Part shown: in pieces, positions 24,460 to 28,440 of the stretch
Layout: each line of letters starts with the position of its first letter
Position numbering within the stretch: position 1 is the first letter of the stretch
NCBI RefSeq assembly: GCF_045037415.1
Contig: NZ_CP173438.1
Length of the DNA stretch: 64,000 bases
Source: Escherichia coli
Lineage (GTDB): Bacteria; Pseudomonadota; Gammaproteobacteria; Enterobacterales; Enterobacteriaceae
Reading direction: 5' to 3' (one strand)
Notes under the pieces: generated by a model
Databases searched by the model: none
What the model was told of the DNA's origin: nothing
Seen by the model: the letters and a program-made list of their open reading frames with translations, nothing else
Made by a program: the position numbers and the translations under genes

Positions 24460-25617
24460 ATGAATCCAGTACCCGCGCAACGTGAATATTTCCTCGACTC
24501 CATCCGCGCCTGGCTGATGTTGTTAGGGATCCCTTTTCATATTTCTTTAATCTATTCGAGCCATACATGGCATGTGAATAGCGCCGAGCCGTCATTGTGG
24601 CTGACCCTTTTTAATGACTTCATCCACTCGTTCCGCATGCAGGTGTTTTTCGTTATATCCGGGTACTTTTCCTACATGCTTTTTTTACGCTATCCCTTGA
24701 AAAAATGGTGGAAAGTACGTGTCGAACGTGTAGGTATCCCGATGTTAACAGCCATCCCCTTACTGACATTGCCGCAATTTATTATGCTGCAATACGTCAA
24801 AGGCAAAGCGGAAAGTTGGCCTGGGCTGTCATTGTATGACAAATATAATACGTTGGCCTGGGAATTAATATCACACCTGTGGTTTTTACTGGTGTTAGTG
24901 GTCATGACGACGCTGTGCGTATGGATATTTAAACGCATCAGAAATAATTTAGAAAATTCTGATAAAACGAATAAAAAATTCTCGATGGTAAAATTATCGG
25001 TGATTTTTTTGTGCCTCGGCATCGGTTATGCGGTAATAAGAAGAACGATTTTTATTGTGTATCCACCCATTCTGAGTAACGGCATGTTCAATTTTATTGT
25101 CATGCAAACGTTATTTTATTTGCCGTTCTTTATCCTCGGCGCACTGGCTTTCATTTTCCCTCATCTTAAAGCCTTGTTTACCACGCCTTCTCGTGGCTGT
25201 ACCCTTGCAGCAGCATTGGCGTTTGTCGCTTATTTACTCAACCTGCGCTATGGCAGTGGCGATGCCTGGATGTATGAAACCGAGTCGGTGATCACCATGG
25301 TCCTCGGTCTGTGGATGGTGAATGTGGTCTTCTCCTTTGGCCACCGTTTGCTTAACTTCCAGTCAGCGCGGGTGACTTATTTTGTTAACGCATCGCTGTT
25401 TATCTATCTGGTTCACCACCCGTTAACGCTGTTTTTCGGCGCATACATTACACCACACATCACCTCCAACTGGCTTGGTTTTCTCTGTGGCCTGATATTC
25501 GTAGTAGGGATTGCGATAATTCTGTATGAAATTCATTTACGCATCCCATTATTGAAGTTTTTGTTCTCTGGTAAACCGGTTGTTAAGCGTGAGAACGATA
25601 AAGCACCTGCCCGTTAA
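24460..25617 (+). CDS. opgC: OPG succinyltransferase OpgC (MdoC), 385 aa
   Basis: Protein [40 protein letters not shown]... is the acyltransferase-3 family membrane protein OpgC; ATG at 24460, divergent from opgGH. Confidence 0.93.
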
Positions 25618-25624
25618 GCCGCGT

Positions 25625-27046
25625 TTACAATAACCATTCCACGGGCAATATCGACGCCAGTTTGACCATAACCCGCTTCCAGAAACTGGTGGCGGGTTCT
25701 TTTTTGAGAATAATCTCTTTCTTTGCATGACGATCAACCCAGTTGATCCGTCCCCACCTGTCCAGACGGAGCTGCCAGGCCGCATCATACTGGCTCTGAA
25801 TAAAGCGTTTATCAATTAACTGTGCCAGCGTTTCGCTCTCTATCACGAAGCCCATTTCAGTATTGAGCAATGTTGAACGCGGATCGAAATTGAAAGAGCC
25901 AATAAACACCGTTTTACCATCGATGCTAAAGGTTTTAGCATGCAGGCTGGCACCGGAATTACCGGTTATACCGCGATCGTGTAATGTACTACTTTGTTCA
26001 CGCGTCGGCTTGAGTTCATATAATTCCACCCCATAGCGAAGCAATTTTTTGCGCCAGCGCGCGTATCCGGCATGGACGACAGCAACATCGTTAGCGGCAA
26101 GAGAATTGGTTAGGATCGCAATCTTTACCCCTTTTCTCACCATCCGTAAGAGTTGCGCCACACCTGCACGTGTCGGTACAAAATAGGAAGAGATAATATC
26201 GATGCGTTCACTGGGTGAGCCCATGATATCGAACAGGCGCTGCGGTAACAGTGAATGCCGTTTTGCCTTGCCCTCCCCTTTCGCCGGATCATCACTTAAT
26301 AAACATGTTTTCGCCCAGATAAGCGGCAACGTTCCATCAACCAGATGATGTATAAACGGACTGGATTCCATTTTGCGTAAGTAACGATGCGTCATGACAT
26401 CGTTATGCCAGGAGGCGGGTAACTCGATGTGATCCGCCATTTCACCTTCCGGGACATCCAGCACCTGCTGTAAGGGGGAAACCGATTTGCAATACCAGTA
26501 GCGGGCGAAATCATCGGCAACGTCCTCTACCACGGGTCCTATTGCCATGACATCTAAATCCGAAAAAAGTGGCTCTTCCCCTGCCCCAAAATAGGCATCA
26601 CCAATATTTCGTCCTCCCACCAGCGTCACCACGCCATCGACAGTGAAACTTTTATTGTGCATACGGCGATTGAGACGGGAAAAGTCGGTGATATAACCAA
26701 GCGGACGTAGCAAACGAAACGAGAAAGGATTAAAAAGCCGGACTTCAATGCGTGGATGGCTGTCAAGCAAGCGTAAAATGTCATCAAGTCCGGGCGTATT
26801 GTTGTCGTCCAGCAACAAACGGACGCGAACGCCACGCTTTGCTGCGGCTAACAGGGCGGAAAACAGTAACCGACCCGACATATCGTCCTGCCAGATGTAA
26901 TACTGAACATCCAGCGTATGCTCTGCCATTTCAGCCAGACGATACCGGGCGGCAAACGCATCCAGACTTTTCTCCAGAGGAAAAAGTCCACACTGACCGG
27001 GATGTTGCGAACACAGTGGCAGCACCGCGCTCGCCAGCCGAGGCAA
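25625..27046 (-). CDS. clsC: Cardiolipin synthase C ClsC (YmdC); start codon uncertain
   Basis: Protein ...LPRLASAVLPLCSQHPGQCGLFPLEKSLDAFAARYRLAE... has two phospholipase-D HKD-type regions. TTG at 27046 directly follows the ymdB stop and gives 473 aa; an in-frame ATG at 27055 (476 aa) would overlap ymdB. Confidence 0.85.
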   Translation of the reverse strand: MPRLASAVLPLCSQHPGQCGLFPLEKSLDAFAARYRLAEMAEHTLDVQYYIWQDDMSGRLLFSALLAAAKRGVRVRLLLDDNNTPGLDDILRLLDSHPRIEVRLFNPFSFRLLRPLGYITDFSRLNRRMHNKSFTVDGVVTLVGGRNIGDAYFGAGEEPLFSDLDVMAIGPVVEDVADDFARYWYCKSVSPLQQVLDVPEGEMADHIELPASWHNDVMTHRYLRKMESSPFIHHLVDGTLPLIWAKTCLLSDDPAKGEGKAKRHSLLPQRLFDIMGSPSERIDIISSYFVPTRAGVAQLLRMVRKGVKIAILTNSLAANDVAVVHAGYARWRKKLLRYGVELYELKPTREQSSTLHDRGITGNSGASLHAKTFSIDGKTVFIGSFNFDPRSTLLNTEMGFVIESETLAQLIDKRFIQSQYDAAWQLRLDRWGRINWVDRHAKKEIILKKEPATSFWKRVMVKLASILPVEWLL

Positions 27047-27047
27047 A

Positions 27048-27581
27048 TCATTCATCTCCTTGTTGGGTAAGGAGTCTTTCGTAGAGGTGGGCGTTTTCTT
27101 CATCATAACAGACAAAGTATACCTGTTCGGGTAAAGCGTGACGGGTAATAAATTCTGAAACGGTTTTTACTGCGATTTCAGCCGCTGCCGCACGGGGATA
27201 ACCATAAACCCCAGTACTGATTGCAGGAAAAGCCACTGACGTATAGCTGTTTGCCGCCACCAGTCGTAGGCTATTGAGATAGGCATCCTGCAAAAGCTGG
27301 TCTTCGTTTTGTTCACCACCACGCCAGACTGGCCCGACGGTGTGCACTACGGCTTTAGCGGGAAGATCGCCTGCAAGCGTAATAACGGCATGCCCCGTAG
27401 GGCAATCGCCCTGCTGCTGCCTGACTTTTAAACAGGCATCCAGCAGGGCCGGACCCGCTGCGCGATGAATGGCCCCATCGACGCCGCCGCCTCCCATTAA
27501 TGACGGATTAGCCGCATTCACAATCACATCAACGGCCAGTTTGGTAATATCACCCTGCACAACATGAATACGCGTTTTCAT
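27048..27581 (-). CDS. ymdB: Macrodomain protein YmdB (O-acetyl-ADP-ribose deacetylase), 177 aa
   Basis: Protein [43 protein letters not shown]... is a macro domain; ATG at 27581. Confidence 0.95.
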
Positions 27582-27675
27582 AACGCCTCCTTACACCTTC
27601 TTGTTTCCTAAGTGTACAGCAGGCTTTTTAGTTAAATCGCATTTTTCTGCTTAGCAACGTGAGTTGTTCAGAAAC

Positions 27676-28078
<403 letters not shown>

Positions 28079-28079
28079 G

Positions 28080-28440
<361 letters not shown>

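Follow-up and report, generated by a model that had tools for sequence, protein, structure and literature searches.

Here we analyzed the ymdB-clsC gene pair in a stretch of Escherichia coli DNA of 64,000 nucleotides (contig NZ_CP173438.1 of assembly GCF_045037415.1, referred to below as the window), in which the pair lies on the minus strand. Our analysis favors, with moderate confidence, an ancestral and conserved clsC start codon that is an ATG inside ymdB and gives a ClsC protein of 492-493 amino acids (aa), together with a credible second site that is specific to Escherichia and consists of a Shine-Dalgarno (SD) sequence and a TTG codon. The internal ATG and the open clsC reading frame behind it are conserved among enterobacteria, and the synonymous variation of ymdB is reduced around them. 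Public records are split on the start of ClsC, the curated K-12 record giving 473 aa and RefSeq giving 493 aa for thousands of other E. coli, and each "clsC-only" construct inherits one of the two.

Conservation of a proposed clsC start codon inside ymdB

The ymdB coding sequence covers positions 27048..27581 of the minus strand, both in the list of open reading frames (ORFs) and in the RefSeq annotation. It encodes a Macro domain protein of 177 aa, and its 3' end reads GAT GAA TGA, with the TGA stop codon at 27050-27048. The longest conserved form of clsC (25625..27106, minus strand, 493 aa plus stop) has the extent given by RefSeq and overlaps ymdB by 59 nucleotides (nt) in the +1 frame. Its proposed ancestral and conserved start is a tandem ATG ATG (27101..27106, minus strand, ATG27106 and ATG27103) contained in the ymdB codons for Tyr159, Asp160, and Glu161. 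Two further candidates are found at the junction of the genes, where the clsC frame reads AAG GAG ATG (27055-27053) AAT GAT TTG (27046-27044) CCT CGG CTG. The TTG (27044..27046, minus strand), which would give 473 aa, is the start in the curated K-12 (MG1655) record and follows the ymdB stop after a lone spacer base, T27047. The ATG (27053..27055, minus strand), which would give 476 aa and an 8-nt overlap with ymdB, is a by-product of the ymdB codons GAT|GAA (Asp-Glu). The clsC frame is open upstream to 27115 and also contains TTG27115 and, downstream, GTG27025. TTG27115 was rejected as a clsC start for lack of conservation, the codon being TCG in C. freundii, Lelliottia, and LSJC7. The first-pass annotation of this junction, which did not state the strand, had located the ymdB stop and both junction codons correctly and had offered these two codons as the choice for the clsC start. 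This proved to be a false dichotomy, since the conserved start lies 56-59 nt inside ymdB and the junction lacks a start codon in most genera.

To compare the junctions, we assembled 22 ymdB-clsC loci from ~17 enterobacterial genera, by one scan of a collection with one genome per species and six targeted look-ups, and read them in three frames. The ATG at ymdB codons 159-161 (C-[Y/F]-D-[D/E]-E) is present in 22/22 loci. In every locus clsC is in the +1 frame relative to ymdB and is free of stop codons from the internal ATG to the ClsC motif TRLxRA, so that all 22 combine a conserved start with an open second frame, as looked for in same-strand out-of-frame overlaps. In the genome-collection set, 12 loci from 10 genera share a spacing of 547 nt between the start of ymdB and this motif, although their ymdB stop shifts between 174 and 180 aa. 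Escherichia has a spacing of 541 nt, and Citrobacter FP75 has one of 544 nt. An example of the tail peptide predicted from the clsC frame inside ymdB is that of Salmonella, LPGFTQDYLLSK.

RefSeq/PGAP starts clsC at ATG27106, with 493 aa and the 59-nt overlap, in E. coli SK1144 and four other E. coli genomes checked, and the 493-aa form covers thousands of database members. The usual annotated length of ClsC is 493-495 aa in Salmonella, Citrobacter, Leclercia, Lelliottia, Cronobacter, Buttiauxella, and others. We note that the accession of K-12 ClsC (NC_000913.3 b1046; locus L003, 2356-3777), NP_415564.2, is a version 2, so this sequence has been revised once, presumably by a change of the start site.

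Start codons near the ymdB stop are limited to Escherichia, Citrobacter, Cedecea, and Buttiauxella. The last three have an ATG or GTG one base past the ymdB stop, and the ATG of the Citrobacter sequence TGA-T-ATG is aligned with TTG27046 of E. coli. At the position of TTG27046, E. albertii has TTA and Salmonella has CTG. ATG27055 is retained in E. coli, E. fergusonii, and E. albertii, and the same by-product ATG is found in Citrobacter. No ATG, GTG, or TTG is present near the junction in Salmonella, Leclercia, Lelliottia, Enterobacter, Cronobacter, Atlantibacter, Siccibacter, Superficieibacter, or LSJC7; in Pseudescherichia, the ESNIH1 isolate, Kosakonia, and one Enterobacter metagenome-assembled genome, the only candidate is an isolated in-frame GTG that lacks conservation and precedes the ymdB stop by a few codons. 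The internal ATG is the only start able to serve across all these genera. A check of ATG27055 versus TTG27046 across enterobacteria, suggested in the first-pass annotation, therefore comes out in favor of neither, as ATG27055 is absent outside Escherichia and Citrobacter and the TTG is already replaced in E. albertii and Salmonella. The joint presence of ATG27055 and TTG27046 is not beyond chance, ATG27055 arising from the Asp-Glu codons of ymdB in Citrobacter as in Escherichia.

A different arrangement is seen in Phytobacter massiliensis (locus L014, 2400-2500), where a remnant of the ymdB 3' end (RQIYLSCYDNKNARR), including the ATG, stands directly before clsC. This genome also has an intact ymdB with a different tail, which ends 185 nt upstream. 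The arrangement suggests a past rearrangement that left the 5' end of clsC intact, and the retention of the ATG favors the internal start.

The overlap leaves a trace in the codons of ymdB. Synonymous diversity is lower than anywhere else in the gene at codons 154-162 (GTA TAC TTT GTC TGT TAT GAT GAA GAA; 27096..27122, minus strand), with an observed/expected ratio of 0.52 and a shuffle P of 0.005, and this segment spans the internal ATG and ~15 nt before it and holds the hexamer TATACT. When the segment was fixed beforehand on Tyr159, P was 0.0003. Synonymous variation over all of codons 151-173, compared with the rest of the gene, gave no significant difference (P = 0.13). Tyr159 is encoded by TAT in 13/13, and Tyr167 varies (10 TAC / 8 TAT). 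Avoidance of stop codons in the clsC frame is visible at the Leu171 codon CTT (27069..27071, minus strand), where CTG, TTG, CTA, or TTA before an A would make TGA or TAA. This codon is CTT in 13 cases and CTC in 3, always CTY before an A-initial codon (including Thr), and CTG is found in 2 species, both before a G-initial codon. The overlapping part of ymdB thus displays both reduced synonymous variation and stop avoidance.

Relatives that lack ymdB have ClsC tails that can be compared with those encoded in the overlap. In Erwinia, Pantoea, and Mixta, ClsC starts 16-18 residues ahead of the motif, and the Mixta start, the only one of these inspected, has a good SD ahead of its ATG. In E. coli, the Met of ATG27106 is 23 residues before the motif, and TTG27046 is 3 residues before it. 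These relatives, like the more distant homologues described below, lend independent support to the internal start. We also obtained an AlphaFold model of the 493-aa ClsC from 48 homologues, with a predicted template modeling score of 0.82. The predicted local distance difference test score is below 50 for residues 1-18, and the first helix begins at residue 23, two residues past the TTG codon. The extra 20 residues of the long ClsC are thus predicted to be disordered, and either start would give the same folded enzyme, which fits the free sequence of the tail across genera. A search of solved structures yielded no close ClsC structure to define a construct boundary.

Junction signals and a possible second start site in Escherichia

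The junction of E. coli contains the SD sequence AAGGAG (27056..27061, minus strand), which is formed by the ymdB codons for Gln-Gly-Asp with GGA, a rare codon, for Gly. It is found only in E. coli and E. fergusonii; Gly175 is GGC in Salmonella, Citrobacter, and E. albertii, which consequently have no AAGGAG. The duplex of AAGGAG(A) with the 3' end of 16S rRNA has an energy of -8.5 kcal/mol. The spacer to TTG27046 is 8-9 nt, a working distance, which makes this TTG a credible second start in Escherichia. The spacer to the out-of-frame ATG27051 is 3-4 nt, and that to ATG27055 is 0 nt; since the SD abuts ATG27055 directly, this ATG is the least likely start. Tight stop/start coupling between the two genes had been claimed in the first-pass annotation for either junction codon. 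The shared strand and the SD of the TTG agree with such coupling, and the missing conservation of a start codon near the ymdB stop and the SD spacing of ATG27055 do not.

The same SD can pair with an upstream coding stretch of ymdB in an mRNA hairpin, CUCCUU(ACCCAAC)AAGGAG (27056..27074, minus strand), which was found as an inverted repeat. Its energy is -6.2 kcal/mol and it accounts for 74% of the ensemble, with a z of -1.2 relative to shuffles, which is not significant. The hairpin could couple the translation of clsC to that of ymdB, but it is not statistically distinctive, and we set it aside as support because its stability is no better than that of shuffled sequence. An out-of-frame ATG (27049-27051, minus strand) overlaps the ymdB stop in the classic ATGA arrangement and begins an ORF of 67 aa (27051..26848) within clsC. 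This ORF is probably spurious, as the same frame has just 7 codons in E. fergusonii, but the ATG might still serve as a decoy start. An Rfam search of positions 25400-28200 gave no genuine match.

We propose the following arrangement for the pair. clsC would be the last gene of the ymdA-ymdB-clsC operon, and its frame would open inside ymdB. The start used throughout the family would be the ATG within the codons for Tyr159-Asp160-Glu161 (the tandem 27106/27103 in E. coli), giving a ClsC of 492-493 aa. Its first ~20 residues would be read in the +1 frame from the stretch that encodes the last strand and helix of YmdB. The N-terminal tail may be a disordered linker that is conserved in length and free in sequence, and such a linker would tolerate the sequence dictated by ymdB. 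In Escherichia, the rare GGA would have created the AAGGAG in front of TTG27046 and with it a likely second site for a 473-aa product, which could be reached by ribosomes that are unwinding or finishing ymdB. E. coli may accordingly make two forms of ClsC, of ~55.9 and 53.6 kDa, with the same folded enzyme. The anatomy of the overlap, its conservation, the stop avoidance, and the synonymous constraint are shown by the sequences. Initiation by ribosomes at the internal ATG of E. coli is inferred, as is any way in which they would achieve it in spite of the poor SD.

Alternative readings of the clsC start

Published ribosome profiling bears on this choice. In the TetRP study (Nakahigashi et al. 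2016, PMC4909307), the entry "ymdC, ATG, -57" (Table S2 row 99) corresponds to ATG27103, and the reads in three samples are 0/30.1/16.1 at this site versus 0/0/5.7 at the annotated TTG. The study contains 22 genes with signal at both the old and the new site. The main text of a paper on retapamulin profiling (bioRxiv 10.1101/520783) does not mention clsC.

Several observations weigh against a start inside ymdB. The authors of the TetRP study rated the ymdC -57 site "not conclusive", as it is located in the coding region of a well-expressed upstream gene (PMC4909307). Upstream of the internal ATGs in E. coli we find only CAGGUA (-3.8 kcal/mol, 13-16 nt off), which is not a usable SD. No N-terminal peptides of ClsC were found, and the supplements of three papers on N-terminomics or start sites have no entry for clsC or ymdB. 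Both the curated K-12 record and the figure of 53.7 kDa in the literature use the TTG. Population variation within E. coli does not discriminate between the starts, since every candidate start codon is retained in the variants examined. In addition, the conservation of the internal ATG is in part forced by the amino acid sequence of YmdB: codon usage alone predicts an ATG across ymdB codons 159-162 ([Y/F]-D-[D/E]-E, three clsC-frame codons) in 68-95% of lineages, and a stop-free clsC frame in 20-85% of them. When synonymous ymdB codons were resampled in 11 lineages, the probability of a stop-free frame with an ATG was 0.16-0.78 per lineage. The product over the 11 lineages, ~1e-5 if they are independent, is in favor of the internal start and, like the fixed TAT of Tyr159, the CTY of Leu171, and the synonymous minimum, exceeds what the conservation of ymdB itself would give, but it is optimistic, as the lineages are not fully independent.

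Taken further, such constraints would mean that there is no start inside ymdB at all. The ATG, the open frame, and the low synonymous variation would then come from ymdB itself, through its protein, mRNA stability, or codon preference, and ClsC would have rare, non-canonical starts elsewhere. YmdB residues 154-173 are strongly conserved, which agrees with this idea, as do the codon usage predictions just given and the lack of a significant difference between codons 151-173 and the remainder of ymdB (P = 0.13). Rare starts would however be needed in at least 10 genera, as Salmonella has CTG alone and Leclercia, Cronobacter, and others have none. The constant 547-nt spacing despite a moving ymdB stop, the Phytobacter remnant, and the match in tail length with the relatives lacking ymdB would also be left unexplained. 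We consider this account quite improbable.

A more serious candidate is TTG27046 as the sole or dominant clsC start of E. coli (473 aa), with the internal ATG as an unused relic. Translation would restart one base past the ymdB stop, coupled to ymdB, whose ribosomes would expose the SD. This possibility deserves attention, although we think it unlikely. The curated MG1655 annotation, the strong SD with its 8-nt spacing that depends on a rare GGA in only E. coli and E. fergusonii, and the hairpin that would sequester this SD all fit it. So do the ATG or GTG one base past the ymdB stop in Citrobacter, Cedecea, and Buttiauxella, the beginning of the structured part of ClsC two residues past the TTG codon, and the higher ClsC yield of clones with ymdB. 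TTG is a weak start codon, however, and is not kept in E. albertii (TTA) or Salmonella (CTG); its TetRP reads (0/0/5.7) are below those at -57, and the hairpin does not stand out from shuffles in its stability (z = -1.2). Nor does this reading account for the stop avoidance and the synonymous constraint upstream of the TTG, though other lineages alone could maintain both. The other junction codon, ATG27055 (476 aa), would be reached when ribosomes move back by a few bases after termination at the end of ymdB. ATG is stronger than any other start codon, ATG27055 is retained in all three Escherichia species including E. albertii, which lacks the TTG, and some gene callers give 476-aa products. 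Its SD abuts it with zero spacer, however, it is a passive product of the ymdB codons GAT|GAA, it is absent beyond Escherichia and Citrobacter, and neither RefSeq nor the curated K-12 record uses it. We regard a start at ATG27055 as very improbable.

The conserved block might instead be an internal promoter. The hexamer TATACT (27117-27122, minus strand), which is formed by the ymdB codons GTA-TAC-TTT, resembles a -10 element of the stationary-phase (sigma-S) type and stands 9 nt before the internal ATG. It could give a leaderless or near-leaderless clsC transcript, which would explain both the missing SD and the strict need for an ATG. The synonymous sites of GTA-TAC-TTT are unusually fixed (GTA 10/13, TAC 15/15), and Cedecea and Buttiauxella, which lack TATACT, belong to the genera in which a start codon closely follows the ymdB stop. 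The contribution of ClsC falls in late-log and stationary phase according to a review, which would also suit such a promoter. On the other hand, there is no -35 or extended -10 element, a promoter scan gave no hit around the internal ATG on the minus strand, and 9 nt is a long distance between a -10 element and the A of the ATG. Citrobacter has TATACT and a junction ATG together. A search of a Cappable-seq supplement gave no match near the internal ATG, although the table may be incomplete, so this is not evidence of absence. A promoter in this place seems improbable to us as the cause of the conservation.

Relation to known systems and to the effect of ymdB on ClsC

The products of both genes can be assigned from their sequences. 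YmdB matches Pfam Macro (1.5e-45) and NCBIfam NF001660 with 376 bits (cutoff 271), the latter covering residues 1-177 as a full-length equivalog match, and is solidly predicted to be a Macro-domain O-acetyl-ADP-ribose deacetylase. ClsC matches Pfam PLDc_2 in two stretches (1.4e-40) and has the PLDc active-site (HKD) motif. Its residues H150-N-K152 and H389-A-K391 are invariant among 48 homologues, as expected of two phospholipase D (PLD)-like domains with HxK(x)4D. The prediction of a two-domain PLD-type enzyme, the cardiolipin synthase ClsC, is likewise solid, and the ClsC of the window is 99% identical to that of K-12. The gene identities of the first-pass annotation are thus confirmed by Pfam and by NCBIfam NF001660. 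A 701-bp query (window positions 26700-27400) has 100% identity to E. coli SK1144, in whose annotation the neighborhood is csgBAC-ymdA-ymdB-clsC with opgC convergent. The two genes are on the same strand with zero intergenic gap, and a ymdAB-clsC operon is named in the literature. ClsC is one of three cardiolipin synthases of E. coli, and in K-12 it makes cardiolipin from phosphatidylethanolamine and phosphatidylglycerol (Tan et al. 2012, as given in later summaries).

Classic operon pairs with stop/start coupling are trpE-trpD and trpB-trpA. Like genes coupled in this way, ymdB and clsC are adjacent in one operon on the same strand, with an SD inside the upstream gene and a start 1 base after or 8 nt before the stop. 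Unlike them, clsC has junction starts in few lineages, and its conserved start is 56-59 nt upstream, too far for simple termination and restart. The pair also resembles same-strand out-of-frame overlaps in having ~20 clsC codons in the +1 frame of ymdB, stop avoidance, and reduced synonymous variation. It differs from them in that the overprinted part of clsC is a disordered linker without conserved sequence, and the constraint falls on the open frame and the ATG rather than on a second protein. Genes with dual in-frame starts (PMC4909307; bioRxiv 10.1101/520783) provide a further comparison. ymdC is in the TetRP list of new upstream ATGs (-57), but unlike the dual-start genes it was left undecided by the authors of that study, the site being within a well-expressed upstream gene (PMC4909307).

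According to reviews, one of them from 2021, more ClsC is obtained from clsC clones that include ymdB, "by an unknown mechanism", and a 2024 paper (Sawasato & Bogdanov, BBA) reports, according to its title, that the ymdB product is not needed for the substrate specificity of ClsC. The first-pass annotation had connected the codon geometry of the junction with an enhancement of ClsC activity by YmdB. The literature bears this out as far as more ClsC with co-expressed ymdB is concerned, and the step from codon geometry to activity goes beyond what the reviews say. We tentatively suggest that the reported need of ClsC for co-expressed ymdB is at least partly a cis effect of the start region 56-59 nt inside ymdB, for which the YmdB protein would not be needed. 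Constructs cut at the TTG would lose the native start, the signals surrounding it, and the 20-residue tail, and constructs carrying ymdB would keep them. In a sharper version of this cis effect, clsC could be translated from a leaderless stationary-phase transcript that is driven by TATACT and begins within ymdB.

If the conserved start inside ymdB is correct, clsC would also be affected when the 3' end of ymdB is deleted or edited synonymously, and ymdB knockouts may be polar on clsC in a way that is not obvious. The effect of YmdB would also become cleanly addressable by three or four point mutations. Otherwise, the case is an ordinary annotation issue in a known operon. We note that overlapping operon pairs and genes with uncertain or dual starts are known kinds, and that both annotations of the clsC start are already public.

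Distant homologues of ClsC offer another view of its N terminus. A lipoprotein signal peptide is present in 25/43 of them (loci L040-L083, e.g. L051, L056, and L073), with the cysteine of the L-x-G-C lipobox 23-26 residues before the TxLGxA motif. These lipoprotein-type PLD homologues, from beta- and gammaproteobacteria, are like ClsC in the whole enzyme (~47-53% identity), in the TxLGxA motif, and in a linker of ~23 residues before it. They are unlike ClsC in having the signal peptide with its lipobox and in having no ymdB upstream. Enterobacterial ClsC has no signal peptide and starts approximately where the mature protein of the distant homologues begins. The lipoprotein-type homologues bear on which side of the membrane ClsC works.

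A programmed frameshift from ymdB to clsC was rejected, as we see no slippery site and the fusions of the two genes trace back, in a few assemblies, to a change of frame close to YmdB residue 120 that leads into the long-open clsC frame. These Macro+PLD fusion ORFs of 651-653 aa (P0001, P0002, P0013, and P0014; locus L086) were met in a few assemblies from read archives, belonging to E. coli and to a Salmonella-like genome, and are either real frameshift alleles of ymdB or assembly errors.

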